DNA from: an uncultured Eubacteriales bacterium | GTDB taxonomy: Bacteria > Bacillota > Clostridia > Oscillospirales > CAG-272 | Direction of reading: 5' to 3' | Assembly: GCA_905210485.1 (NCBI GenBank) | Contig: CAJLXA010000002.1 | Location: forward strand, 4,168-68,167 | Length of the DNA: 64,000 nucleotides | Shown here: in pieces, positions 38,863 through 54,572 of the stretch | How positions within the stretch are numbered: the stretch's first letter is position 1 | Layout of the letters: every line of letters starts with the position of its first letter | Position numbers and translations under genes: made by a program | The notes under the pieces: generated by a model | Databases searched by the model: none | What the model was told of the DNA's origin: nothing | Seen by the model: the letters and a program-made list of their open reading frames with translations, nothing else

Positions 38863-39441
38863 TTATGCCTTTTCTGGAACCTTTTCAGCCTCATCATCCG
38901 GCATAGGCTCCGGCGCTTCCTCGTCCTCAAGCGGTTCCCACGATCTTCCGAATTCGGCATTGCGGAAAAGCGAGGCCAGTCCCGTCAATTGTTTCAGACG
39001 CAGAATTTCGTCTTCGTCCATGCCGAGGTGCCGGGAAATCCACGCGTCGGAACGGCCGAGTTCGTGAAGTTCTTTCACGATATTGCTCATCAGATCAACG
39101 TCGTGCGTACCGCGGGCGCGGTTATGGCGGATCGTACTGGCCATACGCTGGTCGAGAGGTTTGTCGATGACGGAAACCGGCAGCATACCGTTTTCACGGC
39201 AATAGATGTCCACATAGTCTTTCATAATTCTGTAGCGGTGAAATCCGTCGACAATGATATAGGTATCGTTTTCCTCATCGTAGTAACACACGATCGGCAT
39301 GGTATAGCCGTCCTCTTTTATGCTGTCGTAAAGAAGGCGCATTTCGGGCGGTGCCACGCTGTTGGGGTTATACGTATTCGGCGATATTTTTTCAAACGGC
39401 ACGGCAATGACATTATACACCGGGCTTTTATAGCTGCTCAT
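38863..39441 (-). CDS. ParB/Srx-fold protein, IbrB-like
   Basis: IVDGFHR and TIRHNRARG motifs. Acidic C-terminal tail. Its start overlaps the upstream gene by 4 nt. Confidence 0.75.
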   Translation of the reverse strand: MSSYKSPVYNVIAVPFEKISPNTYNPNSVAPPEMRLLYDSIKEDGYTMPIVCYYDEENDTYIIVDGFHRYRIMKDYVDIYCRENGMLPVSVIDKPLDQRMASTIRHNRARGTHDVDLMSNIVKELHELGRSDAWISRHLGMDEDEILRLKQLTGLASLFRNAEFGRSWEPLEDEEAPEPMPDDEAEKVPEKA

Positions 39442-40763
39442 TTTTCGTCTTCCTCTATTGCTTCGTATTTTTCTTTCAGGATCTTCACGCGCAACTGCTG
39501 TTCACGCGTCAATGAAAAACCCATCGTGCGGCATATATGATCGTTTTTCAGAATACACGCGCACATGCGCTTCCAACTCGGTATATCCTTTGTCGATTTG
39601 ATGTCGTCGGTATCATCGGGGATCCTGCCGACAAAAACGACCCGCGGATTTTTCATGACCGTATAATTGGAAACGCCGTTCAGACGGATGTCATACCCGC
39701 GCGCAACCAATTCGTTTACCACATCGGTGGGCAGGCCGCCGCCCGTGCGATGCCAGAAGTCGATCGACGTGCGGAACTTTCTTATATAATTGTTGCGCAG
39801 TTTTGCCGGCAAGGTCTCCAAAAGAAACAGCGTATACTCTTTCCATGTATAATTCTTGGGAAGCGTTACCTTACGATAGCCGAGCGCCTTGGTTTTCCCG
39901 TAAAGAGCGGCGGAATTGACTCCGCGTACCCGCCCCACAAGCTTCACCCATATTTCCGGGTCGATGATACGGTAAAGATTCAGGCTTTCTTTTGCATAGT
40001 CGTTGAACGGCGAAGCAACGCGCATCTGGTCGGGGCGAACCCCCGCCATGTAATACAGATCGTACAGGTGGTTATACTCGTACCCGAAAATAGCGTTGGC
40101 ATGCCAGACATCGGAAGTCGACCAATCGTAAAGAGGTGATGCCGCCCATACGTCCTTATGCCGCTGAATAATCCACGACTGCCCCTTATACCCGTATTTG
40201 GCATTGATAATAGCGCTGTACCGGTGAAGCGATTCGTCGCAACGGATGCCCAGAAGGCATATCGTTTTTTTGTTTTCATGCGTCATGCGGTAAAACCGCC
40301 CGAACTGATTGGCAAGGTCCTCCTGATGCATGCGATAACGGTAAGTGACAAAGGGATTGTTCTTCAGATTGATGACATAGGGATGATCCGGCATCGGACG
40401 CACCCAATCCGCTTCCTTTTTGTCGTCCCACGGATACCAGAACATTTCGTAGTTGCTGATCGAAGTGCGCGTGGCCATCGGCAGGCATACCCAATACAGT
40501 TCCGCTTCTTTTTCAATGCGGTTAAAAGTATTCTCCACATATTTTGTCGTTTCGCTGTACTGCGCCTCAAAATCCTGATGGAACACCCCTACCGTTCTTC
40601 CGGGATAAAACTTATTCCGGAAATCCAACGTAAGATTCAGAAGAAGTCCGCTGTCTTTGCCACCGGAAAACGAGACATATATATTGTCAAACTCACGAAA
40701 AATATAGTGCATACGTGAGCAAAACGCCTCGTAGACATTCTGATGCTGATACTGTTTTTTCAT
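39438..40763 (-). CDS. PAPS-reductase-fold PP-loop ATP pyrophosphatase with long C-terminal domain, IbrA-like (DUF3440 type)
   Basis: PP-loop SFSGGKDSGLLL near the N-terminus. 441 aa. Paired with the ParB-like gene. Confidence 0.75.
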   Translation of the reverse strand: MKKQYQHQNVYEAFCSRMHYIFREFDNIYVSFSGGKDSGLLLNLTLDFRNKFYPGRTVGVFHQDFEAQYSETTKYVENTFNRIEKEAELYWVCLPMATRTSISNYEMFWYPWDDKKEADWVRPMPDHPYVINLKNNPFVTYRYRMHQEDLANQFGRFYRMTHENKKTICLLGIRCDESLHRYSAIINAKYGYKGQSWIIQRHKDVWAASPLYDWSTSDVWHANAIFGYEYNHLYDLYYMAGVRPDQMRVASPFNDYAKESLNLYRIIDPEIWVKLVGRVRGVNSAALYGKTKALGYRKVTLPKNYTWKEYTLFLLETLPAKLRNNYIRKFRTSIDFWHRTGGGLPTDVVNELVARGYDIRLNGVSNYTVMKNPRVVFVGRIPDDTDDIKSTKDIPSWKRMCACILKNDHICRTMGFSLTREQQLRVKILKEKYEAIEEDEK

Positions 40764-40894
40764 TGATCACAGAGCGAGCCTGAAAGAGAAAAAGCCGCCA
40801 TAGCCCCTTTACCGATTTACTGTCCGTTTTATACGGATTGTCGGCGTGTAAAAACGGTTATCTTCAACCGAAAACACACGCCGAAACCGGTTAT

Positions 40895-40923
40895 ATTATA
40901 CCATTTTTTTGTCATAAAAACAA
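40895..40923 (-). promoter_or_regulatory. extended -10 promoter of the ibrA/ibrB-like cassette
   Basis: On the minus strand: TTGTTT (40918-40923), 17 nt, TGgTATAAT (-10 at 40895-40900). About 125-nt 5' UTR containing a CGGCGTGT...ACACGCCG hairpin. Confidence 0.55.
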
Positions 40924-41034
40924 GGTAATTTGCGCATTTTCTCATTTTTTGGCACTTAGGCAAAAACAGGAGTCCGTTTTTTGTGAAATATTCCAAAAAT
41001 GTCACAAAAATATGCGAAAAGGTATTGCAAATTA

Positions 41035-41063
41035 CTTCAAAAAAGATTAGAATAAAGACAATA
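41035..41063 (+). promoter_or_regulatory. sigma-A type promoter of the isomerase gene
   Basis: TTGCAA (41035-41040), 17 nt, TAGAAT (41058-41063). Confidence 0.6.
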
Positions 41064-41083
41064 AAATCAAAAAGGAGATCCCT

Positions 41084-42052
41084 ATGAAACTCAGTGTACT
41101 CACCAATCTCTTCGGCAATATGAGTTACGAAGAGGCCTTTCGGAAATTTGAAGAACTCGGCGTCGACGCCGTGGAAATCGGTTGCGGCGGATATCCCGGA
41201 AAGGCTCATTGCAATCCGAAAGAATTGCTTCAGGACGAAAAGAAACTGCAGGCTTTTACCGATTCGCTGAAAAGACATCATCTGGAACTGGCCTGCCTCT
41301 CCTGCCACGGCAACGCCGTACATCCCGACCCCGTCATAGCCAAAGGATTTGACGATGATTTTCACGACGCCGTTCTGCTTGCGGAAAAACTGGGCATCGA
41401 CACCGTTGTCACCTTTTCCGGTTGCCCCGGCGGATCGCCCGAAGATAAAACGCCGAACTGGGCGACCTGCGCCTGGCCCGAAGATTATCTTGCCATCCTT
41501 GACTACCAGTGGAATCAGGTGCTGATCCCCTATTGGAAGAAAACGGCCGCTTTCGCCAAAGAACACGGCGTAACCAAAATTGCTTTTGAAATGCACCCCG
41601 GTTTCTGCGTTTATAATCCCGAAACGCTTCTGCGCCTGCGTGCCGCCGTCGGCGACATTATCGGCGCAAACTTTGACCCCTCGCACCTGATCTGGCAGGG
41701 TATCGAACCCGTCGCCGCCATTCGCGAACTCGCCGGCGCCATCTATCACTTCCATGCAAAGGACACCAAGGTCGACAAATATAACACCGCCAAATTCGGC
41801 GTCCTTGATACAAAACCCTACAGCGACGAAATTCACCGCAGTTGGGTATTCCGCTCGGTAGGATACGGCAACGGTCTTGACTACTGGCGCGACATCATCT
41901 CCGCGCTCCGTCTTGTCGGATACGACAAGGTCATGTCTATTGAACATGAAGACAGCCTCATGACCACGGAAGAGGGTCTCAAAAAGGCCGTTGAATTCCT
42001 GAAGCAGTCCATTATCCGCGACCCGAAACCGACCACGATGCATTGGGCATAA
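41084..42052 (+). CDS. sugar phosphate isomerase/epimerase (xylose-isomerase-like TIM barrel)
   Basis: 322-aa AP-endonuclease-2/xylose-isomerase-like barrel sequence (FEMHPG, SIEHED). Confidence 0.75.
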   Translation: MKLSVLTNLFGNMSYEEAFRKFEELGVDAVEIGCGGYPGKAHCNPKELLQDEKKLQAFTDSLKRHHLELACLSCHGNAVHPDPVIAKGFDDDFHDAVLLAEKLGIDTVVTFSGCPGGSPEDKTPNWATCAWPEDYLAILDYQWNQVLIPYWKKTAAFAKEHGVTKIAFEMHPGFCVYNPETLLRLRAAVGDIIGANFDPSHLIWQGIEPVAAIRELAGAIYHFHAKDTKVDKYNTAKFGVLDTKPYSDEIHRSWVFRSVGYGNGLDYWRDIISALRLVGYDKVMSIEHEDSLMTTEEGLKKAVEFLKQSIIRDPKPTTMHWA

Positions 42053-42172: not shown

Positions 42173-43462
42173 TTATTGCGGATTTTCGGCAACACCGAAT
42201 TGCAGACGCAGTTTCTCCGAGAGTTCATCCGTAACCGTCCCGAAAGGCGCGCCGCCTTTCGCGTAATCGGTATTTTTATATACGGTTCCCGTTCCGCTGT
42301 AATTTTCGCATATGCCGAGAAGCGCTTCCGCAACCGTCTCGGGAGAGCAGTTTTTCAGAGATACGATATTGCCGTTAAAGTCGGCAATATCTTTGTTCTT
42401 ATAGCAGTTTGTAATGGTCTTCACACCGAAAGTGGACATTTCCAGCGGCGGATAACTCGGATGCGGCGACACCATGAGAGAGATGCCGGCATAACTGTCG
42501 CACATCGTCTGCGCATAATCCCGAAGCGGCATTTTACCGGCGGCCTTCAGCGTTGCACCGTTTCCGAGGTCGATGGTCTCATGCGTTTCTCCCGCCGACA
42601 GGAATGTCCATTCCGCGACGTCACTCATTTTACCGGCAAACAACCTCAGCGCACAAACAAGCAACGTAAAGGCATTCCTGTCCGTATGCGGTCTTCCGTA
42701 CACCAGTATCTGTTTCTTTTTCGGTACGGTCTCTTTTTCGGGAAGACAGGAGATCAGGGCGGGATTCAATACCGGATCAAACGACCACATGGCGGAGAAA
42801 GAATAACCCTCGTTAACGAAATAATCCCGCAGAATCGAAGAATTGATGACGGCATAGACGGGAGAATCCATACGGTAGGTGCTGTCCGCCATCAGATACC
42901 GCGACGACCATGGATAAAAGCCGGGTTCATAATCCTGAATCATATAGACAAGCGGTCGCACAGGAACGCCGAAATATTCGCTTTGCGCATGAAGAACCGC
43001 TTTCACGGTGTAGGCCGTCCACCAACCCGTTGCCACGAAAATATCGTTTTCCGCTACGGGAATCGTTTTTCCGCTTCTGTCCGCAAAAGAGATGAGCTGA
43101 TACGATTTCAGGCTGTCCTCTTCCGCCGAAACCACGACGTAATCCGAAGGAGCCACGGAAGTTTCCGAAATGACGGGCGCGTCACATGTGATGATCCGTG
43201 CGTCACAACCGTTTTTCTTACGGAGTTCTTCAAAGAAACGGATCGCCGTCGCGATACCGCCGAAGACATGCGCCGTATCTACCGACGGTGTAAGAAGATT
43301 GAGCCGAAGCTGTTTTCCGTAAGCCTCCGATTTCCGCGCTCCGATCGGTTCTACCTCCGGAATACGGACTTCCGCACCGCTTGCAACCGCCGATTTTGCC
43401 ATTCTGTAAAGCGGCGCCGTCAACGGGAATTTTTTCAGAAACTGTTTTACGCGTGTATTCAT
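42173..43462 (-). CDS. GT-B type glycosyltransferase, tentatively WsaF-like rhamnosyltransferase
   Basis: 429 aa with two Rossmann-like halves. Last gene of the rhamnose operon. The family assignment is from recollection of WsaF-like sequences and is not verified. Confidence 0.55.
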   Translation of the reverse strand: MNTRVKQFLKKFPLTAPLYRMAKSAVASGAEVRIPEVEPIGARKSEAYGKQLRLNLLTPSVDTAHVFGGIATAIRFFEELRKKNGCDARIITCDAPVISETSVAPSDYVVVSAEEDSLKSYQLISFADRSGKTIPVAENDIFVATGWWTAYTVKAVLHAQSEYFGVPVRPLVYMIQDYEPGFYPWSSRYLMADSTYRMDSPVYAVINSSILRDYFVNEGYSFSAMWSFDPVLNPALISCLPEKETVPKKKQILVYGRPHTDRNAFTLLVCALRLFAGKMSDVAEWTFLSAGETHETIDLGNGATLKAAGKMPLRDYAQTMCDSYAGISLMVSPHPSYPPLEMSTFGVKTITNCYKNKDIADFNGNIVSLKNCSPETVAEALLGICENYSGTGTVYKNTDYAKGGAPFGTVTDELSEKLRLQFGVAENPQ

Positions 43463-46400
43463 TACCTTTTTGCCTCCTTCGGCGTAGTGGACGACAGATC
43501 CAGATTGCGGTTATAGAAAGGATCGCCGTTTTCCCGGTAAGGCGTGTAGACAGCATACGAACGGCGGAAATCCACCTCGGGAATGTCGTCGGGTTTACGG
43601 CTTTTCGATTCGTAATGATACAGCCTGACCGCAGGTTCATATTTATTATAATACCCTTTTTCATACGCGCGGAGACACAACTCTATGTCACTGCCGCATA
43701 TGATGAAACTTTCGTCGAATTCCCCGATGTCTTCTATAGTTTTACGCGATACCGCAAGACAGGCGCCCGTCACGGCAAGCACGTTCCTTGCCACCATAGG
43801 CGATACGAACGGCGCCCCGTAATGCACGGGCGGCTGCCCTTTGAACACATGATCCGCCCAACCGCCGAACCCGACCACAACGCCTGCATGCTGTATGGTG
43901 CCGTCCGGGTACAGAAGAAGCGGCCCCGCAACGCCGATACCGGGACGGATAACATTTTCGGCAAGACGCGTCATCCAATCCCCGCTTATGACCACCGTAT
44001 CGTTGTTCAGGAAAATAAACACGTCGCCGGTGGCGTTGCATATACCAAAGTTATTGATCTTTGACCAGTTGAATTCCATGTCGGCCGCAATCACACGGAC
44101 GCGCGGATTCTGCTCCGTAATCTTGCGGAACCAATTTTGCGTCTCTTCCTCGACGGAACGGTTATCCAGTATGATGACTTCATAATCGGGATAGTCCGTT
44201 TTTTCAAGAATACTCTGCACGCAGGCGTCGGTCAATGCGCTTTTGTCTTTCATCGGAATCATGACCGACACGCGGGGCGCGGGATCCGGGAGAGGATAGC
44301 GCGCGTCATATACGAATGTATAGGCGGTGTCTTCCGCATGAGCGCCGTCGCCGGATACGCGGTGCAGATGCTCGTCAAGCGCGCGCTTACCGGCGGTATG
44401 CGCATATGGTTTCGCTGTCGGATCGGCCGCCGTTGAGCCGGGACATTCCCGCCATGTATACAGGATTTTCGGAATATGCACGATATTCCGCGTGCACTCG
44501 GACAAACGAAGCATAAGGTCGTAATCCTGGCTTCCGTCAAAAGCCGGGCGGAATCCCCCGACCGACAGAAACAGGGAGCGGCGGATCACCGACAGGTGAC
44601 AGATATACATCTGACTGCAAAGAAGATCCGGCGAAAAATCCGGTTTATAAAACGGATTTATATGCTTGCCGGCGGGAGAAAGATGATCTTCATCGGAATA
44701 CAGCACATCGGCGCCGGTATTCTGTATAAACACCGCGTTCTGATACAGCGCTTCCGACGACAGAAGATCGTCGTGGTCGAGAAGCGCGATATAGTCGCCG
44801 CTTGCCATCGCCGCGCAGGCATTGGTATTTTCCGATATGCCGCCGTTTTTTTCAAGACGGCGATATTGCACGCGTGCGTCGCGCGCCGCATATGTCTTTA
44901 CGATTTCTTCCACGTAAGCATGCGCCGCGTCGCTTCCGTCTGCGAGGCAAAGTTCAAAATTCGCGTAGGTTTGCCGCAGTACGGACTCAATCATTTCACA
45001 AAGATATTTCTTGTTCGTGTTATACAAAGGCACGATCACCGAAAATTTCACGGAATTGGTAAAAACCGTTTTCCGCTGTAACGCAAGCTCCTTTTTCGTC
45101 GGGAAAACCGATTTTCTGGGGAACAGACGGGTTTTGATCTTACGAAAAGTGATTCCGGGGCCGTTCCGGCGTATGGAACGGAGAAATTTTCCGAATATAC
45201 GCACCGGAGGAATTTTTTTCAGGAAATCGCCGAGCATGCGAAAAGGTTTTGTTATCTTCCAGAATGCCGCGTTGGAAATCGTATCATACGCAACGCTCTT
45301 TTCATTTAGACTTTGCCGCAACGCGGCGTTTTCTTCCTCGCTTTTCCGACGAAAGAGCGCAAACTCTTCTTTCTCTCCGGCATATTCCGCACGGAGCATC
45401 GCTATCGTTTCTCTTTGTTCATTGCAGGTCGCCCGCAACGTTTCATGTGCTTCGGATTTTTCCTTAAACGCCGACATAAGTTCCTGATACGCCTGTGCGT
45501 CTTTTTCGGATTTTTCTTTCAGTTGCGCTGTATTATTTTCGCTTTCCGATAATGCACGGCTTTTTTCGTCTATGATTTTTTCTTTCTCTTTGAGATTGTC
45601 AAAATACGCCTTTTGACTGGAGATCAAAATGTGATCACGATCGCAAAGTTCGCTCTGCAACCATGTTATGGTCTTTTTCAGATCGGTCATGTCCTCGCTG
45701 ATATGACCGTTCAGGCGGCGCAGTCTGTCCTCCTCGGTTTTCAGCGTCTCTATTTCGGCCTCCTCTTGCAAAAGCCGCTCGGTGGCCTGTGCCAGCTTGC
45801 TTTTTTCACGGTTTTCCCCGGAAATAATCTCGTCTACAAAAGAGGGGGCGGCGGAGATCGGTACAAGTTCTGCCTGTACGCCGAAAAACGTCGCGCCATC
45901 GGGTATACGGAACGTAAACTGCGGGTATCGCTCGGTGGCAATGTAGCCGTCCGCATACGGAGCGGCGTGATCAATGGCTGTCGGGGACAGATCGCCCGAA
46001 TCCGTACGGAAATGCACATTTTTATAATAAAAAGTGCCCTCGTCGCACGGATCAAGGCGCAGATGCACCGTATGGGGGGGGAGCGGAAATTCCTTATGGA
46101 TTTTCAGCGGGTTCTCACAGGTGAAAGTGATGGCATTTTTGTCGCATAATCCTTCGCCCGTATCGAAAAACACGCGGTTGACGCCGCTGTATACAGGAAG
46201 ACGTTCGTTTCTCACCATTCCCTTTTCATGCGCATAATCCATACGGTAGGCCACGCCGACAAATTGATAAATATGTGAATACGGTTTGTTTTTGATAAAA
46301 GCAAGATCCGCCGATGACGCCTCGCTTTTTTGTTCCGTCGATCCCATAGGAACCATTGTCCCCGTCAGTTCGGCAAGAAACAGACCGGCCTCCGCACATA

Positions 46401-46899
46401 TTTCCGGCAAATTGTCTTTGCCGAAAAAATGAATGTGCGTATCGTCGAGAATTCCGAGAGGTGTATAATCAAAACGGCCGTCGATCAACTTCAGAAGAAC
46501 ATCTCCGTGCGCAAGATTCGGAACCGAAAACAGCACTTTCCCGTCCTTTTTCAAAAAAGCCGCCGCGTCGCGAAGGGCATTATGCGGAAAACGGAGATGT
46601 TCAAGAACATCTCCGAAAATAATACTGTCAAATCTCATGTCCTTGACGGCTTCTTTCCATTCTCCCGACTCAATATCGCACAATACGGGCAAAGAGAGAT
46701 AAGGTGACGCCTGTTTCAGCGCTTCTTCACTGATTTCCACGCCGACAACGGAACAGTTTTTTTCTTCTTTCAGATAGCGCGACAGCAGTCCTGTAGCGCA
46801 TCCGAATTCAAGAATATGTTCACCAGAGTTTACATGATTAGCGATAATTCCATGTGATGAATTGTCGCCGAAGCCAATGGCCACCGAATATTTGAACAT
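43462..46899 (-). CDS. 1145-aa fusion of SAM-methyltransferase, unknown domain, coiled coil, basic amphipathic segment, GT2 and GT2
   Basis: MT motif ILEFGCATGLLS plus IIFGDVLEHL (aa ~25-175). Heptad-rich E/K region aa ~362-538. GT2-1 FSVIVPLYNT...LLDHDD. GT2-2 VSVMIPMKD...FLNNDT. Confidence 0.8.
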   Translation of the reverse strand: MFKYSVAIGFGDNSSHGIIANHVNSGEHILEFGCATGLLSRYLKEEKNCSVVGVEISEEALKQASPYLSLPVLCDIESGEWKEAVKDMRFDSIIFGDVLEHLRFPHNALRDAAAFLKKDGKVLFSVPNLAHGDVLLKLIDGRFDYTPLGILDDTHIHFFGKDNLPEICAEAGLFLAELTGTMVPMGSTEQKSEASSADLAFIKNKPYSHIYQFVGVAYRMDYAHEKGMVRNERLPVYSGVNRVFFDTGEGLCDKNAITFTCENPLKIHKEFPLPPHTVHLRLDPCDEGTFYYKNVHFRTDSGDLSPTAIDHAAPYADGYIATERYPQFTFRIPDGATFFGVQAELVPISAAPSFVDEIISGENREKSKLAQATERLLQEEAEIETLKTEEDRLRRLNGHISEDMTDLKKTITWLQSELCDRDHILISSQKAYFDNLKEKEKIIDEKSRALSESENNTAQLKEKSEKDAQAYQELMSAFKEKSEAHETLRATCNEQRETIAMLRAEYAGEKEEFALFRRKSEEENAALRQSLNEKSVAYDTISNAAFWKITKPFRMLGDFLKKIPPVRIFGKFLRSIRRNGPGITFRKIKTRLFPRKSVFPTKKELALQRKTVFTNSVKFSVIVPLYNTNKKYLCEMIESVLRQTYANFELCLADGSDAAHAYVEEIVKTYAARDARVQYRRLEKNGGISENTNACAAMASGDYIALLDHDDLLSSEALYQNAVFIQNTGADVLYSDEDHLSPAGKHINPFYKPDFSPDLLCSQMYICHLSVIRRSLFLSVGGFRPAFDGSQDYDLMLRLSECTRNIVHIPKILYTWRECPGSTAADPTAKPYAHTAGKRALDEHLHRVSGDGAHAEDTAYTFVYDARYPLPDPAPRVSVMIPMKDKSALTDACVQSILEKTDYPDYEVIILDNRSVEEETQNWFRKITEQNPRVRVIAADMEFNWSKINNFGICNATGDVFIFLNNDTVVISGDWMTRLAENVIRPGIGVAGPLLLYPDGTIQHAGVVVGFGGWADHVFKGQPPVHYGAPFVSPMVARNVLAVTGACLAVSRKTIEDIGEFDESFIICGSDIELCLRAYEKGYYNKYEPAVRLYHYESKSRKPDDIPEVDFRRSYAVYTPYRENGDPFYNRNLDLSSTTPKEAKR

Positions 46900-46901
46900 A
46901 G

Positions 46902-47642
46902 TTATCTCCGACTCTGTTTATAAAGATTGCAGACGGGTTCGGTATCGCCGATCATGCGGACGCGCCCATGTTCAAGCCACACAACGCGTTGGCACAAGCG
47001 CTCCACCTGTTCGATACTGTGAGAGACAAAAAGCACCGTCGTGCCGCCGCTCATAAGTTCCGCAATACGTTTTTCGCACTTCTGCTGGAAGAGGAAGTCC
47101 CCCACAGCCAGAATTTCGTCCACGATCAGAATATCGGGTTTTACGATAGTGGCGATTGAGAAACCGAGACGCGCCACCATACCGGAAGAAAAGTTTTTGA
47201 TAGCCACATTTTCAAACGGCCGGAGTTCCGCAAAATCAAGGATCTCGTCATACTTCGATCTCACAAAGTTGCGGTCGAATCCGAGAACGGAACCGTTGAG
47301 ATATATGTTTTCACGCGTTGTCAGTTCAAAGTCAAATCCGGCGCCGAGTTCTATCAGCGGAGAGATCACGCCGTCTGTCGTCACGCGGCCGGCGCTCGGC
47401 TCAAGGATACCGGAAATCACTTTGAGAAGCGTACTTTTTCCTGAGCCGTTGAGGCCGATAAATCCTACGACTTCACCTTTTTTCACTTCAAAGGAAACGT
47501 CGGATAATGCGGTAAATTCGTCGAAGCGTAATTGATGCTTCAGGAATTTGATCACATATTCTTTCATGTTGTCGACTTTTTCTTTCGGCATGTTGAAATT
47601 CATGGTCACATGGTCGACAGCCACAGCAATATCCTGATTCAA
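46902..47642 (-). CDS. polysaccharide ABC exporter ATP-binding protein (Wzt/TagH-like, no C-terminal carbohydrate-binding extension)
   Basis: Walker [10 protein letters not shown], signature [12 protein letters not shown], Walker [13 protein letters not shown]. 246 aa. Confidence 0.85.
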
Positions 47643-47662: not shown

Positions 47663-48949
47663 TTAAATGTAAAAGATGAATTTATTCTGGTTCTTGCGGA
47701 AAATCAACATGCCTCCGAAAAGCGCGATCAGGGCATAGCCAAGGCATATGATGTGTTCCGTCGCCGTCGGAAGATTTCCGTATATCATCACGTTACGGAA
47801 CATCTCAACAAAATGATAGAGCGGGTTCACGCGCACGATCGCCTGCATCCATCCGGGCAGAATGTCCATCGGATAAATAATCGGCGTGAGATACATCCAT
47901 ACCGTAATCAATACGCTGTAAAGATGCCCGACGTCCCGGAAAAACGTATTGAGCGTTGCCAGAACCAGACCGAGACCGAGACTGAAAATAAACGTATATA
48001 TCAGCGGTATCGGGAACATGAGCATGGTTGCATGCGGCGTAACGCCGATAATGAGAAATACGATCACCACCGCGATCAGAGAAAACAGCATGTTCACAAA
48101 GGAAAACAGGCACTTTTCAAGCGGGAAAATGATTTTCGGTATATATACTTTTTTGATAAGGCCGGCCGCACCGAGAATGGACGTCATCGAAAAGTTCGTA
48201 GCCTCGGTAACAAAATTGAAAATCACATAGCCGGTCAGGTAATAAACGGGGAAATCCTGAATCTGAAACTTGAAAATGTTGGAGAACACCGCGGTCAGAA
48301 CAAGCATCATAAGAAGCGGATTCAGAACGCTCCACAAAATGCCGAGAACCGAGCGACGGTATTTTGTTTTGATGTCGCTGGAGACCAGGTCGCCGATGAG
48401 AAACCGATAACGCCTGATGCCACGCAACTCTTTTTTGATAGCGGACGGCTCCTGCAGAAGATCCAGAGCGAGAAGAATCACCACGAGCGTCCCGAAAAAG
48501 ATCAGAATGAACATGAGGTAATTCAGATTGATAGTATGCGGATTTACCGCGAACGAGGCCGGTGCCGTACCGGGTGTTTCGCCGTTTTCCGTTCCGCGCA
48601 CCGCGATACCGCAGGTGTCGCGCTGCACACGGATATAATAGTTGCCGTTTTTGCGGATAACAGGAACGTCCACGGACTTTTCCTCCGTGAAGACATCGCC
48701 GGGTTCGTCAGCGAAATATACGCGGACAGCCGTCAGTTCATTCTCGAAATCACCGTACAGAGCCACATTGTTTACATAGGTCTTCTCCGTAAAGAAGACG
48801 CCCTCTCCCGCATTATCCGCTTTCACCGTGGTCCGACGGCTCATGATATTCGAAAGATTGTCCGCGCTGAAAAGCGCAAGACTGAACACTATCGCCAGTA
48901 TCAGAGACAGCAGTACGGCAGAAATATTCCAAAATTTATTCTTTTTCAC
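47663..48949 (-). CDS. ABC-2 polysaccharide exporter permease (Wzm/TagG-like) with ~170-aa N-terminal extension
   Basis: Canonical ABC-2 core from [28 protein letters not shown] onward. It is preceded by a TM segment, a ~110-aa extracytoplasmic segment and a second TM segment. GTG start. Confidence 0.8.
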
Positions 48950-48960
48950 AATGTATACCT

Positions 48961-49536
48961 TTAAAATGCAAATCCAAGTTCCGAAAAACGAAGATTCTTT
49001 TTATCCTTTTCGCTGAGAAGAACTTCCACGCCGTCGGGAATAGGCCATTTTACACCGATGTCGGGATCGTTGTACAAAAGTCCTCCTTCGCTTGCCGGAT
49101 CATAATAACGTGTGCATTTATATACAAACGTTGCCGTTTCCGAATTCACAAAAAATCCGTGCGCAAATCCTTCGGGAATGTAGAACTGCTTTTTGTTTTC
49201 CGCGCTGAGAAGCACGCCGTACCACTTGCCGTAGGTGCGGCTGTTCTTACGCAGATCGACCGCCACGTCATACACTTCCCCGCGCGTCACACGGACAAGT
49301 TTGCCCTGCGGATTGGCCTTCTGAAAATGCAGACCGCGCAAAACGCCCCTGCGGGAGGAGGATTCGTTATCCTGCACGAATGTGGCGGGTGTGCCGTCAA
49401 GATGCTTGATATACGGAGCAAACTCCTCGTTATAAGTTTCCATAAAATAACCGCGCGCGTCACCGTATACCGTCGGTTCGATTACATAGAGATCGGGAAT
49501 ACCCGTTTCCGTAAATTTGAATTTTCCCATTATCAT
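48961..49536 (-). CDS. rfbC: dTDP-4-dehydrorhamnose 3,5-epimerase
   Basis: Cupin RmlC sequence (FTETGIPDLYVIEPTVYGDARGYFMETY, RGLHFQ). Confidence 0.9.
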   Translation of the reverse strand: MIMGKFKFTETGIPDLYVIEPTVYGDARGYFMETYNEEFAPYIKHLDGTPATFVQDNESSSRRGVLRGLHFQKANPQGKLVRVTRGEVYDVAVDLRKNSRTYGKWYGVLLSAENKKQFYIPEGFAHGFFVNSETATFVYKCTRYYDPASEGGLLYNDPDIGVKWPIPDGVEVLLSEKDKKNLRFSELGFAF

Positions 49537-50564
49537 TTCTCCTGCAGGCGGTCGCCGTACATTTTTTCATAATAGTTTTTGTAGTCGCCGCTGATGATGT
49601 TTTCCCACCATGCGCGATTATCGAGATACCAGCGGATCGTCTTTTTAATGCCGTCGCGGAACATGGTTTCGGGAAGCCAGCCGAGTTCGTTATGAATCTT
49701 TGTCGGGTCAATGGCATAGCGTCTGTCGTGGCCGGCGCGATCCTTGACATAGGTAATCAGGTCTTCGCTCTTGCCGAGTTCCTTCAGAATGATCTTCACA
49801 ATGTCGATGTTCTTCATTTCGTTATGGCCGCCGATATTGTATACCTCACCGACGCGTCCCTTACGGATAATAAGATCGATCGCACGGCAATGATCTTCAA
49901 CATACAGCCAGTCGCGCACATTGTCGCCCTTGCCGTAAACCGGAAGCGGTTTGTCGTAAAGCGCATTGGCAATCATCAGGGGGATCAGTTTTTCCGGGAA
50001 ATGATAAGGTCCGTAGTTATTCGAGCAACGGGAAATGGTCACGGGGAGACCGAACGTGCGGTGATAAGCCATTACCAGAAGATCGGCGGAAGCCTTGGAC
50101 GCGGAATAAGGGCTGGACGTATGGATCGGTGTGGTTTCGGTAAAGAAAAGGTCGGGACGGTCGAGCGGAAGGTCGCCGTATACCTCGTCGGTCGAAACCT
50201 GATGGTACCGCTGAATACCGTACTTACGGCAGGCGTCCATCATCACGGCGGTACCCATGATATTGGTGTTCAGAAAAACGCCGGGGTTTTCGATCGAACG
50301 GTCAACATGGCTTTCCGCCGCAAAATTGACGACAATATCGGGGTGCTCCTCTTCAAACACGCGGTAAACCGCCTCGCGGTCGGTAATATCCACCTTGCAG
50401 AAGCGGAAATTCGGATTGTCCATCACAGGGGCAAGCGTTTCCATATTGCCCGCATACGTCAGACAGTCAAGGCAGATGATGCGGTCTTCGGGATGCGTTT
50501 TCAGCATATAGTGAACAAAATTTCCGCCGATGAAGCCAGCGCCGCCGGTAACGATAATTTTCAT
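49533..50564 (-). CDS. rfbB: dTDP-glucose 4,6-dehydratase
   Basis: MKIIVTGGAGFIGGNF, YSASKASAD catalytic motif. Confidence 0.9.
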   Translation of the reverse strand: MKIIVTGGAGFIGGNFVHYMLKTHPEDRIICLDCLTYAGNMETLAPVMDNPNFRFCKVDITDREAVYRVFEEEHPDIVVNFAAESHVDRSIENPGVFLNTNIMGTAVMMDACRKYGIQRYHQVSTDEVYGDLPLDRPDLFFTETTPIHTSSPYSASKASADLLVMAYHRTFGLPVTISRCSNNYGPYHFPEKLIPLMIANALYDKPLPVYGKGDNVRDWLYVEDHCRAIDLIIRKGRVGEVYNIGGHNEMKNIDIVKIILKELGKSEDLITYVKDRAGHDRRYAIDPTKIHNELGWLPETMFRDGIKKTIRWYLDNRAWWENIISGDYKNYYEKMYGDRLQEK

Positions 50565-50597
50565 AAAAAGTCCTCTTTTAAAATATATTTTCAGGTC

Positions 50598-51479
50598 TTA
50601 TTCTTTGTAATTCCGCATAAACGCGGCGAGTGCCTCTTCCCACGGACGGAATTCGTCGCCCACCGTCACCCGGAACATCAGGTTGTCCAGCGACGAATAA
50701 GCGGGGCGGCGCGCAGGCGTCGGATATTCCGCCGTCGTGCAGGGAGATACCGTGGCCGCAATGCCTGCAAGTTCCACGATTTTTTCGGTAAATTCAAACC
50801 ACGAACATTCGCCGTTGCCCGTGCCGTGATATACGCCGTATTCTTCCGTGGTAAGAAGTTTTAAAATATGGTGAGCGAGATCGGCCGCATTGGTCGGGTT
50901 GCCCCGCTGATCGGATACCACACGGCAGGCGCCCTTTTCCCGCGCAATCTTCATCATGGTTTTGACGAAGTTATTGCCGTAATAGCCGTAAAGCCACGCC
51001 GTACGGACAATGAAATAACGACTGCAGAATTCACGGACATAACATTCGCCGAGATACTTCGACGCCCCGTATACGCTCTGCGGACCGCATATGTCCCATT
51101 CCGTATACGGCTTGTCGCCGTTACCGGGAAATACGTAGTCGGTCGACACATGGATCAGTTTCGCGCCGATCTTCTGCGCGGAAACGGCAAGATTGCGCGG
51201 CCCCAGCGCATTGGCGCGCATAGCCGTCTCCCTCTCGCTTTCGCACTTGTTGACGTTGGTGAAAGCGGCGCAGTTGATCACCGCGTCATATTTTTCGCGC
51301 GTAAACAGCGCGTCCACCGCTTCGGCGTCCGCAATATCCAGTTCATCAATGTCGATCGGACGGACAATGTTTTTCTGCAACAATACGGGCGGACGCCCGA
51401 TTTCGGTTTCTCCGCGTTCAAAGCACCTGACGAGCTCAGTGCCGAGCTGTCCTTTTCCCCCGGTGATCAGTATTTTCAT
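50598..51479 (-). CDS. rfbD: dTDP-4-dehydrorhamnose reductase
   Basis: [22 protein letters not shown] motif. Confidence 0.9.
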   Translation of the reverse strand: MKILITGGKGQLGTELVRCFERGETEIGRPPVLLQKNIVRPIDIDELDIADAEAVDALFTREKYDAVINCAAFTNVNKCESERETAMRANALGPRNLAVSAQKIGAKLIHVSTDYVFPGNGDKPYTEWDICGPQSVYGASKYLGECYVREFCSRYFIVRTAWLYGYYGNNFVKTMMKIAREKGACRVVSDQRGNPTNAADLAHHILKLLTTEEYGVYHGTGNGECSWFEFTEKIVELAGIAATVSPCTTAEYPTPARRPAYSSLDNLMFRVTVGDEFRPWEEALAAFMRNYKE

Positions 51480-52372
51480 CAGTATCGGATCTTCCCTTCC
51501 GCGACAGCGCGCAAATGTTTACCGTAATCGGATTTTCCGTAAGAAACAGCGGATTCCATGAGTTTTTCGCGCGTGACCCAACCGTTTTTATAAGCGATCT
51601 CTTCAATGGCGGAGATCTGCACGCCCTGCCGCTTTTCTACCATACGGACAAATTCTGCCGCTTCGAGGAGGCTGTCCATCGTACCGGTATCCAGCCATGC
51701 AAAACCGCGGCCGAGAAGCTGCACATCAAGTTTTCCTTCTTCAAGATACAGGTTGTTCAGCGTGGTGATCTCCAGTTCGCCGCGCGCCGACGGCTTTACC
51801 TTTTTCGCCATGGCGGATACGCGGTTATCGTAAAAATAAAGTCCCGTTACGGCATAGTTGGACTTGGCTTCCTCACGCGGCGGCTTTTCCACAATGGAAA
51901 CGGCCTTTCCCGCGTCATCGAATTCCACAACGCCGAAGCGTTCGGGATCTTCCACATAATAGCCGAACACACTGCAACGGCCGTTTTTCTCCGCGTTTTC
52001 GGCCGCGTCACGCAAAATACGGGAAAACTTATTCCCATAAAAAATATTGTCGCCGAGAACCATGGCACAGCAATCGTCGCCGATAAAATCTTCGCCGATC
52101 AGAAAAGCCTGAGCCAATCCGTCGGGAGACGGCTGTTCCTTATACGACAGGTGAATACCGAAATTCGAGCCGTCGCCGAGCAGTTTTTCAAAGTTCGGCA
52201 GGTCGCGCGGCGTGGAAATGATGAGTATATCGCGGATTCCCGCCAACATCAGCGTGGAAAGCGGATAATAAATCATCGGTTTGTCGTAGATCGGCAGAAG
52301 CTGCTTCGACGTAATGGTGGTCAGAGGGTAAAGACGGGTGCCGGAACCGCCGGCGAGAATAATGCCTTTCAT
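51479..52372 (-). CDS. rfbA: glucose-1-phosphate thymidylyltransferase
   Basis: [18 protein letters not shown]. Confidence 0.9.
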
Positions 52373-52401: not shown

Positions 52402-53337
52402 TTATAAGTCTTTCGGTAGGGATTTGATTTTGTATTTGCCGATAAGATACATGCCGCGGAAAATCAGGTTTTCCGCAAGAGACTGACGGTAGGCCTTTGC
52501 GGAAAACACATACCCTAACCGGGTGAAGAAGTTTTTCCCGCAGAAAAAGAAGCGGCGCGCTTCGTCAAGGTACTCGCTTTTCATCACATCACGGTAATGC
52601 GTTACCAGAGACAAAAGCTGCCGCACCCCTTTTTTCGGAGCGTCGGTCTTCATACGCTTCAGCCGCGTGCCGAGATTGCGGAAGAATCCGTTCCGATAAC
52701 CGATGACGTTCCCGCCGTGCTGACGGTAAAGCGTTGTCGGCGTCGCGTCAAAAATCACGCGCCCCGTTGCCGAGGCAAGCATGTAAACAAAGAAATCGGG
52801 CACCAATATGTTTTCGCACTTTTCACGGCGCAAAAGCGCCATCAAAGCATGGTTCGCCACCTGCGTATGGCCGGGGCAGACATTCTGCACCATGGCATTG
52901 TAAAAAAGCGGCGGTTTTTTCGGCGTCATTGTCTGTCCGATGGCATGAAGTTCTGCGTCCACAAGGTAAGAAAGCGCAGCATACAAAAGCGGCGCGGTAT
53001 TGTCGCCGCGATCAAGCGCTTCCACGGCGCGGGACAGTTTGTCCGGCAACCATACGTCGTCCTGATCGCTGAAAGCAAAGTAATCGCAGGACATATCGGC
53101 CATGGAAAAAAGCGCGGTCATGGAATCGACAAATCCGATATTATCGCCGAACACCAAAGAAAAACCGTGCCTGTCCCGATACTCTTCAAGAATTTCCCGC
53201 GTGCCGTCCGTCGAACCGTCATCACGGATCAGAACGGATATGTCGCCGGCATTTTCCAATGCAAGAAAACTGTCCAACTGAGGGCGCAGATATTTTTCCC
53301 CGTTATAGGTGGAAAGAAGAATCTGAACGCGTGGCAA
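52402..53337 (-). CDS. family-2 glycosyltransferase; possible WbbL-like adaptor rhamnosyltransferase
   Basis: [20 protein letters not shown]...DDGSTDGT...SDQDD. First gene after the operon promoter. Confidence 0.7.
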
Positions 53338-53586: not shown

Positions 53587-54537
53587 TCATATCAAGAGAA
53601 TTGACGTAACAGCGCATATCGCCGGAAGCAATAGAAGCGCCACGGTCTCCGGCACGGAAAGACCGGCGTCGCATAAAAGATAATGCAGATGTCCGCGGTC
53701 GGCGGAAAAAGGCGACCGATGTTCCGTAATACGTCTTACTATCGACAGAAAAACATCGCAAAACGGCACAAAAAACAAGAGTGCGCATGAAAGCAAAAGC
53801 ATAAAAAGCGATCCGCCCGCCGCGCTTCCGGCAGAAGCCGGAACGGCGCTGTCCGAAACGGTTGCCATGGCCAGATACCCCATTGCGTAACCGAGGAACT
53901 GGCTTCCGCAGTCCCCCATAAAAAGGAATGCCCGCGGCGCATTGTACGGCAGAAATCCCACTACCGAAGCGCACAATATGACGGCAACCGCGGCCGGCCA
54001 CGCAACATCGTTTTTTACCGCAAACAAAAAAATACCGCACAGCGTCACAAGGGCGAGCGATCCCGCAAGTCCGTCGATTCCGTCCACGAGATTCTGCGCG
54101 TTGACCGTCAATAACAAAAACGCCGTCGTCGCCACCGTTGCGAAAAACGGGGGAAAATACGGAATACGCACGCCGTATAAAGGCGCGGGAACGCAAAAGA
54201 GAATCTGCAAAAACAATTTTCCTTTTGCCGGCAACGTATACATATCGTCAAGAAATCCGCACATAGCGGCCGCCGCTCCGCAGAGAAGCAGTATAACGGA
54301 CTTTTCATCGGCAAAAAAACGGTTCAAAAGCAAAATTCCCAACGCGGAGGCCGTAAACATGGCCAGTCCTCCGCCCCGCGCCGTCACCCGCAAGTGACGA
54401 TGCCGTCCCCCGTCCGGCACATCAAGCGCGCCCGCGTGTTCGGAAAAAGTGGCCGCAAGCGGCGAAAGAGCAAAAGCCGCGGCAAATGTTGCGAGCATCG
54501 GCAAAAACGCCCGTGACAAGATATAAGAAAAAGGCAT
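53587..54537 (-). CDS. polyprenyl-phosphate HexNAc-1-phosphate transferase (WecA/TagO, GT4/MraY family)
   Basis: DDMYTLPAKGKL and NAQNLVDGIDGLAG motifs. Multi-TM. ATG (MPFSYIL) 7 nt after GGAG. The ORF-track start at 54564 is rejected. Confidence 0.85.
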   Translation of the reverse strand: MPFSYILSRAFLPMLATFAAAFALSPLAATFSEHAGALDVPDGGRHRHLRVTARGGGLAMFTASALGILLLNRFFADEKSVILLLCGAAAAMCGFLDDMYTLPAKGKLFLQILFCVPAPLYGVRIPYFPPFFATVATTAFLLLTVNAQNLVDGIDGLAGSLALVTLCGIFLFAVKNDVAWPAAVAVILCASVVGFLPYNAPRAFLFMGDCGSQFLGYAMGYLAMATVSDSAVPASAGSAAGGSLFMLLLSCALLFFVPFCDVFLSIVRRITEHRSPFSADRGHLHYLLCDAGLSVPETVALLLLPAICAVTSILLI

Positions 54538-54572
54538 ACGTATTCTCCTTTCGGATATGTACATATACCTTT

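Follow-up and report, generated by a model that had tools for sequence, protein, structure and literature searches.

A putative WsaE/ORF6-type terminator-polymerase in an ABC-transporter-dependent rhamnose operon of an uncultured Clostridia lineage

Can a single polypeptide polymerize a rhamnan, measure it and cap it? The question is raised by an open reading frame (ORF) encoding 1145 aa on the minus strand (43462..46899) of a 64,000-nucleotide stretch of contig CAJLXA010000002.1 (GenBank assembly GCA_905210485.1), the whole of which is referred to here as the window. A previous interpretation, made from the DNA letters alone (the sequence-only reading), took the product to be an all-in-one polymerase, terminator and molecular ruler. 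The answer reached here is a qualified one. The 1145-aa protein is probably (with a probability of about 0.65) a terminator-polymerase of the type represented by WsaE of Geobacillus stearothermophilus and by ORF6 of Klebsiella pneumoniae O7 (ORF6-O7). A bifunctional polymerase-terminator of an L-rhamnan that depends on an ATP-binding cassette (ABC) transporter, with a coiled coil as its ruler, is thus the best explanation of the data and matches two experimentally studied enzymes, but the glycosyltransferase (GT) encoded by the adjacent gene is probably needed as well. The locus does not overturn current models. It would extend the coiled-coil terminator-polymerase design, which has been studied best in the O antigens of Escherichia coli and Klebsiella and in one Geobacillus S-layer glycan, to a lineage of the Clostridia that is uncultured and probably lives in the gut.

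Domain order of the 1145-aa protein

The ORF is a single, ATG-initiated frame, and a GGAG sequence is situated 7 nt 5′ of the ATG, where it overlaps the 3′ end of wzt. Its product was analysed by Pfam searches and by means of an AlphaFold2 model built on 22 homologues, which has a mean predicted local distance difference test score (pLDDT) of 80. It is apparent that the ORF, the Pfam matches and the model agree on one polypeptide with the domain order proposed in the sequence-only reading. The order is methyltransferase, β-sandwich, coiled coil, amphipathic segment, GT2 and GT2. What had been left as an unassigned region of ~180 aa does exist as a stretch of the protein, but it can now be divided into the tail of the methyltransferase fold and a discrete β-sandwich. 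Hidden Markov model (HMM) assignment of the modules returned Methyltransf_23 at aa 25-173 (E 1.3e-20), Glycos_transf_2 over two stretches (E 2.9e-42), the best of them at aa 620-734, and Glyco_tranf_2_3 at aa 875-1100 (E 1.3e-23). The model shows a methyltransferase fold (aa 1-225), an all-β domain (aa 241-347), long helices at aa 352-417 and 423-542, three short helices within aa 545-592, and GT-A folds at aa 619-850 and 877-1125. Unless otherwise indicated, all features described below lie on the minus strand.

The N-terminal domain (aa 1-225; 46225..46899) is identified as a class-I S-adenosylmethionine (SAM) methyltransferase by the Pfam and PDB matches, by Foldseek, by residue conservation and by a pLDDT above 90. 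Motif I is LEFGCATG (aa 30-37), an acidic residue follows β-2 within GVEIS (aa 53-57), and motif II is FGDVLEHL (aa 95-102). Residues G33, G37, D75, D91 and D97-L102 are invariant or nearly so in the 22 homologues. The SAM-binding motifs are therefore intact, as had been proposed. The best PDB match is 3cc8, an uncharacterized protein of Bacillus cereus (E 5e-25), with which the domain shares 30% identity at a TM score of 0.78 in the Foldseek comparison; further matches are UbiG- and MetW-like.

The two C-terminal modules also carry the residues expected of active enzymes of this kind. GT2 module 1 (aa 619-850; 44350..45045) has the DXDD motif DHDD at aa 708-711 (nt 44767-44778), while GT2 module 2 (aa 877-1125; 43525..44271) has the NXD motif NND at aa 965-967 (nt 43999-44007), the start of an NNDT sequence at aa 965-968, and N965, N966 and D967 are nearly invariant among the homologues. 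DHDD and NND match the DXDD and NXD motifs that have been validated by mutagenesis in ORF6-O7 (PMC11231755), an agreement that favours the terminator-polymerase assignment. In Foldseek comparisons, the C-terminal half of the protein resembles dual GT-A polymerases, namely chondroitin polymerase K4CP (2z86) and heparosan synthase (8vh8). Together with FWKITKPFR, discussed below, these motifs are found exactly where the sequence-only reading had placed them.

Between the catalytic ends lies a spacer of ~190 residues (aa 352-542; 45274..45846), recognized as a coiled coil from the helices of the model and from its heptad periodicity. It contains two glycines and one proline, the latter being its first residue. 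The power of its hydrophobicity spectrum at a period of 3.5 residues is 94, as compared with 9.2 ± 9.2 for shuffled sequences, and none of 2000 shuffles reached 94; the spectral peak is sharp at 3.5 rather than 3.6 residues. The earlier proposal of a long heptad coiled coil is thus borne out. The two parts of the region, taken separately, have powers of 55.4 and 50.9, from which in-phase amplitudes would predict a value of about 100 for the whole. That the observed value is close to this figure suggests that one continuous heptad register runs through the break at aa 418-422. As a single rod, the coil would be ~28 nm long. In homologues, the length of the equivalent helical segment varies between 51 and 200 aa and its sequence shows little conservation, while the domains on either side are conserved, a pattern that fits a tunable spacer. 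The segment is strongly heptad-periodic in proteins P0003 to P0006 too.

The coil is followed by a segment (aa 543-592; 45124..45273) that has a net charge of +13 and whose first two helices have hydrophobic moments of 0.58 and 0.79. The basic amphipathic stretch claimed for this position is therefore present, and from its sequence it is presumed to be a membrane-surface anchor. It includes FWKITKPFR (aa 546-554; nt 45238-45264). The corresponding motif, W[KR]hTxPhR, was found in 20 of 85 related tandem-GT2 ORFs, whatever the type of terminator they carry, and in most of the 20 it is situated 65-80 aa ahead of GT2-1. The motif is a candidate membrane anchor or docking site.

The remaining domain is the β-sandwich ('MID'; aa 241-347, 107 aa; 45859..46179), which is all-β both in the full-length model and in a model of the domain alone (pLDDT 87.5; predicted template modelling score 0.82). 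It is marked by the motifs FFDTGEG, LRLDP and YPQF, and no match to it was found in Pfam or among PDB sequences. Its family comprises 1162 cluster representatives at E <= 1e-3. None of the best 147 of these has a match to the nucleotide-binding domain of Wzt or to the core of Wzm, and ten members that were sampled are essentially devoid of Pfam domains. The β-sandwich is considered a candidate glycan-binding module. The whole stretch between the methyltransferase, which ends at aa 225, and the coil, which begins at aa 352, amounts to only 127 aa and hence leaves no room for a kinase. Consistent with this, no cryptic kinase of the ORF6-O7 type (~223 aa) was found in the model, where only the 107-aa β-sandwich precedes the coil. 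With no kinase, a plain O-methyl cap would be expected, as in WsaE and the O8-type WbdD.

Known relatives of the design and the partner WsaF

To the sequence-only reading, this layout looked like a hybrid of WbdD and WbbB. The layout is not a new one, as it is already known from WsaE (PMC2943079, PMC3898925) and from ORF6-O7 (PMC11231755). WsaE, which was published in 2008 (Steiner et al.) and is reviewed in PMC2943079, takes part in synthesis of the S-layer polyrhamnan of G. stearothermophilus NRS 2004/3a. It is described as trifunctional, with an N-terminal 2-O-methyltransferase and two rhamnosyltransferase domains (PMC2943079, PMC3898925), the rhamnosyl transfers being α-1,2 and α-1,3. The methyltransferase domain methylates the terminal α-1,3-rhamnose and has been assigned to chain termination, and the enzyme works with WsaF, which forms the β-1,2 linkage (PMC2943079, PMC3898925). 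The gene order in Geobacillus is wzm-wzt-wsaE-wsaF, with overlapping or abutting codons (PMC2943079). Likeness to WsaE and to ORF6-O7 was judged from published descriptions and from the neighbouring WsaF homologue. On this basis, the present protein shares with WsaE the combination of an N-terminal SAM methyltransferase and two GT domains in one polypeptide (Pfam, AlphaFold2), the order wzm-wzt-X-wsaF with tight or overlapping junctions, the presence of rml genes in the cluster and a closely homologous partner, WsaF. There are also differences. Synthesis in Geobacillus is initiated by WsaP, a WbaP-type Gal-1-P transferase, whereas the initiator here is a WecA-type GT4 enzyme. The Geobacillus pathway ends with the oligosaccharyltransferase WsaB acting on the S-layer protein, and no such enzyme is encoded in the operon described here. 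Finally, the Geobacillus Wzt is predicted in the review to bind the methylated chain end (PMC2943079), whereas the Wzt of the window has no carbohydrate-binding module (CBM).

ORF6-O7 (Kelly et al. 2024) is a protein of 1414 aa in which a methyltransferase, a cryptic kinase of 223 aa, an immunoglobulin-like, CBM-like domain, a coil and two GT2 modules have been described (PMC11231755). The GT2 modules depend on dTDP-L-rhamnose, and the protein polymerizes and terminates in vitro, installing a methyl-phosphate cap (PMC11231755). It resembles the 1145-aa protein in its N-terminal methyltransferase and its coil, in ending with a pair of GT2 modules that carry DXDD and NXD, in the separate encoding of a further GT for the repeat unit, and in the wzm, wzt and rml genes of its cluster. 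The β-sandwich of the 1145-aa protein, which likewise precedes the coil, may be the counterpart of the CBM-like domain. It differs in being longer and in carrying the kinase, which the 1145-aa protein lacks; in its partner GT, which is a ribofuranosyltransferase where a WsaF-type rhamnosyltransferase is found here; and in its setting, a Gram-negative host with a lipopolysaccharide O antigen, as opposed to a Clostridia-like host.

The two enzymes originally invoked are more distant comparisons. WbdD (E. coli O9a/O8, Klebsiella O3/O5) likewise has an N-terminal methyltransferase distal to a long coil that leads to a membrane-binding amphipathic helix, and provides the concept of the coil as a molecular ruler. 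It has no GT modules, however; polymerization falls to a second protein, WbdA, which is recruited to the WbdD C-terminus, whereas the GT modules here are in cis, and the O9a WbdD also carries a eukaryotic-like kinase. A PDB sequence search with the 1145-aa protein returned no WbdD chain at E <= 0.01, so that the likeness to WbdD concerns the design rather than membership of a common family. WbbB (K. pneumoniae O12) shares the single-polypeptide layout of N-terminal terminator, coil and two C-terminal polymerizing GTs. Its terminator is a GT of family GT99 that transfers Kdo (ketodeoxyoctonate) in β linkage, and its Wzt has a Kdo-reading CBM, as opposed to the class-I methyltransferase found here. 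Two other loci, L021 and L059, whose proteins have a third, N-terminal GT2, are nearer to the WbbB layout than is the 1145-aa protein. By analogy with WsaE and ORF6-O7, then, the protein is a further example of a known design and not a new hybrid. As a variant with a methyltransferase only and no kinase, it could provide a simpler system in which to pursue the molecular-ruler idea in a Gram-positive rhamnan. To judge from the taxonomy of the homologues (Clostridia/Eubacteriales metagenome-assembled genomes), the host is presumably Gram-positive, as was supposed in the sequence-only reading.

The term 'all-in-one' also appears not to apply. Immediately downstream, a gene for a WsaF-family rhamnosyltransferase of 429 aa (42173..43462; Pfam WsaF_N E 7e-59, WsaF_C E 1e-46) has a start codon that overlaps the stop codon of the 1145-aa ORF by 1 nt (TAATG), and the two are, from the sequence, translationally coupled. 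Its product matches PDB 2x0d, the sequence of the G. stearothermophilus WsaF crystal structure, with an E value of 1.7e-106. A homologue search with this neighbour gave 1177 matches, and the Geobacillus WsaF was not among the best 120 of these 1177. In some relatives the two proteins are joined. P0002 (1511 aa; locus L081, 8001-12536) has WsaF fused at its C-terminus, and P0181, P0183 and P0241 likewise combine methyltransferase, β domain, both GT2 modules and WsaF, these fusions, P0002 included, being 1511-1734 aa in length. The range extends to 1947 aa when P0271 is included, the only one of them in which the N-terminal methyltransferase and β-sandwich are not visible. The fusion of WsaF to relatives of the 1145-aa protein suggests that the two act together as one polymerase, to which WsaF would probably supply the third linkage.

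The operon as a whole supports a rhamnan exported by an ABC transporter, as was proposed in the sequence-only reading, in that rmlADBC, wzm and wzt all lie within it. The dTDP-L-rhamnose pathway genes rmlA, rmlD, rmlB and rmlC (48961..52372) are followed by wzm, for an ABC-2 permease of 428 aa (47663..48949), and wzt, for an ABC transporter ATPase of 246 aa (46902..47642), all identified by domain searches. The wzt stop codon lies 2 nt ahead of the ATG of the 1145-aa ORF.

It was of interest to consider how widely the design is distributed. Among GTDB species genomes, at least 596 loci encode a relative of the tandem GT2 region. Homologues that are full-length and share the methyltransferase were found in metagenome-assembled genomes of Clostridia, in Desulfitobacterium, where the homologue is annotated merely as a glycosyltransferase, and in cyanobacteria. 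Other tandem-GT2 relatives (L002, L009, L021, L031, L034, L035, L059, L075 and L080) differ in the N-terminal module, which may be a methyltransferase of another family, Sulfotransfer_3 (L035), a third GT2 (L021, L059) or an unannotated kinase-like domain. Wherever the sequences were inspected, a coil follows the alternative module, and some of these relatives have two copies of the β-sandwich or have it on the far side of the coil. From these sequences, the terminator module appears to be swappable, and the interchangeability of N-terminal modules ahead of a coil supports a modular terminator-spacer-polymerase design.

The closest relative of the GT2 region in GTDB (60-66% identity) was found in a metagenome-assembled genome of the Eubacteriales (L001, 6001-9324). 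Its protein has neither methyltransferase nor β-sandwich; it starts with a coil of ~35 aa and the sequence WRITKPLR, and a fusion to WsaF is apparent. Close relatives must therefore have diverged by gain or loss of the terminator module.

Capping, chain length and the transporter

A mechanism consistent with these results can be proposed by analogy with the systems described above. A WecA-like enzyme would prime undecaprenyl phosphate, and a GT2 of 311 aa would add an adaptor sugar. With the amphipathic segment anchoring them to the membrane, the C-terminal pair of GT2 modules would extend the rhamnose repeat together with the coupled WsaF-like enzyme, using dTDP-L-rhamnose made by RmlABCD. 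The coil, probably as a dimer or trimer, would keep the N-terminal methyltransferase up to ~28 nm off the membrane, such that only sufficiently long chains could reach it. O-methylation of the non-reducing terminal rhamnose would then block further extension, the β-sandwich beside the methyltransferase perhaps helping to capture the chain end, and Wzm/Wzt would export the lipid-linked polymer.

Several observations weigh against this scheme. In vitro, methylation by WsaE has been reported to be independent of chain length (PMC2943079). The coil, which was modelled as a monomer, has pLDDT values of 50-73 and is broken at aa 418-422. Foldseek searches with the β-sandwich gave no significant match (best E 0.05) and none to any solved CBM. 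The Wzt of this locus is a bare nucleotide-binding domain, which covers aa 6-243 of its 246 aa, and neither Wzt_C nor any other C-terminal CBM was detected on it in Pfam and NCBIfam scans, whereas every terminated O-polysaccharide system studied has a cap-reading CBM at the C-terminus of Wzt (PMC11231755). Gating of export by the methyl cap, and hence a tightly defined length, is accordingly less certain. Given such a Wzt, chain growth would probably be ended by a cap that the transporter does not read.

The main rival explanation draws on the same observations. Here the methyltransferase would be decorative, the coil would serve for oligomerization or as a scaffold, and chain length would result from the ratio of polymerase to transporter and from an obligatory link between synthesis and export, as in K. 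pneumoniae O2a, whose Wzt also has no CBM. In its favour, the Wzt is a bare nucleotide-binding domain not only here but also in L081, L082 and L083 (244 aa in each), CBM-less transporters are known for the uncapped, coupled O1/O2 systems (PMC11231755), and methylation by WsaE in vitro is reported to be independent of chain length. The terminal pyruvate of the O1 polymer diversifies that polymer without setting its length (PMC11231755). The arrangement of the protein is harder to explain in this way. The terminator is distal to the coil and the GTs are membrane-proximal in many taxa, terminator modules that are swappable and coils that vary in length are difficult to reconcile with simple oligomerization, and the coiled-coil proteins of this type studied so far all act in termination (PMC11231755). 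An explanation by scaffolding and decoration, although the strongest of the alternatives, is therefore regarded as unlikely.

Less probable still is that the methyltransferase acts on internal rhamnose residues, on the lipid or adaptor region or on a non-glycan substrate, which would leave the polymer uncapped. The class-I fold is generic, the closest PDB entry is uncharacterized and specificity cannot be read from the sequence, all of which would be compatible with another substrate. The existence of standalone proteins composed of methyltransferase and β-sandwich does not favour this explanation, nor does the fusion of the same methyltransferase family to the N-termini of tandem GT2 polymerases in many loci; moreover, the characterized analogue WsaE methylates the terminal rhamnose (PMC2943079). 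The chance of such a substrate is thus considered small. An artefact of assembly or annotation, such as the fusion of two genes by a frameshift, is a negligible prospect for which no supporting point was found, as a 97%-identical protein of 1145 aa, with neighbours identical in kind, is encoded on an independent metagenome contig (L084) and more than 15 full-length homologues maintain the same domain order.

For a bifunctional polymerase-terminator, then, the unusual component is the transporter, and this variant is the part of the locus worth following. The independent related loci L081, L082 and L083 contain a cassette of rmlC, wzm (451 aa), wzt and a methyltransferase/β-sandwich/coil/GT2/GT2 protein, and L087 also has a Wzt that consists of the nucleotide-binding domain only. 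In contrast, L085, which has a methyltransferase of the same family, encodes a Wzm of 263 aa and a Wzt of 407 aa with PF14524 (Wzt_C), and in most related loci Wzt has a C-terminal extension of 165-245 aa. The Wzm of the window, at 428 aa as against the usual ~260, has instead an N-terminal extension of 175 aa (nt 48425-48949). Two transmembrane helices (aa 7-28 and aa 143-165) enclose a β-rich domain of ~110 aa in this extension, and the canonical permease follows. From the positive-inside rule, the β domain is probably extracytoplasmic. The extension is conserved in L081-L083 (~200 aa) and is likewise present in L002, L007, L018 and L072.

A profile HMM of the β-sandwich of the 1145-aa protein detected the Wzm extensions in 8 of the 9 sequences tested, with per-sequence E values of 4e-8 to 2e-4. 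For the Wzm of the window itself, the E value was 8.6e-5, and hhalign gave 3e-4. The scores are low, but they suggest that the extension domain of Wzm is probably related to the β-sandwich of the terminator. It is conceivable, although quite doubtful, that in the clade formed by the window, L081, L082 and L083 the reading of the glycan has moved off Wzt to the β-sandwiches, one on the terminator-polymerase in the cytoplasm and the other on Wzm, probably outside it. If these domains do bind the rhamnan or its methylated end, recognition and hand-off of the capped chain would be organized in a manner that has not been described for WbdD, WbbB or ORF6. Within the cell, selection or retention of the chain would fall to the terminator; on the outer side, the permease would keep hold of it until its transfer to the presumptive acceptor, wall or protein. 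A system that is predicted to be capped, and yet combines a CBM-less Wzt with a β-domain Wzm, raises the question of whether cap recognition by the transporter is obligatory for control of chain length.

Initiation genes and the surrounding DNA

The upstream end of the operon contains the two genes to which the initial steps were attributed above. The putative initiator (53587..54564) is a member of the GT4/WecA-MraY family of polyprenyl-phosphate sugar-1-phosphate transferases (Pfam Glycos_transf_4, E 1e-29); its match to the NCBIfam model ECA_wecA (E 1e-25) is under the curated cutoff. The GT2 of 311 aa (52402..53337) is a candidate for the adaptor enzyme that would use the lipid-linked primer as its substrate, a role suggested by analogy with WbbL and ORF3-O7 (PMC11231755).

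At the other end, a 404-aa ORF on the minus strand (40829-42043) was considered as a further gene of the operon but discarded, since it merely shadows, in antisense, a gene on the plus strand (41084..42052, +) that encodes an AP_endonuc_2 protein with a xylose-isomerase-like TIM barrel (domain search) and is convergent with the operon. The operon therefore ends at the WsaF gene, 3′ of which no intrinsic terminator was detected. The operon and those flanking ORFs that were scanned contain no gene for an oligosaccharyltransferase or a Wzy_C-like protein, and no ligase was identified among the ORFs of the window that were scanned.

The locus is surrounded by chromosomal housekeeping genes (rpoA, secY, polA, trpS and those for RNase R and PFOR). 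Its G+C content is 47-54%, and there is no sign of recent foreign origin. Beyond the AP_endonuc_2 gene, at 38863-40763 on the minus strand, lies a pair of genes for a PAPS_reduct and DUF3440 protein (441 aa) and a ParB_N-like protein (192 aa), which presumably resembles the pairs of the IbrA/IbrB type. The same pair also adjoins the 97%-identical locus, L084.

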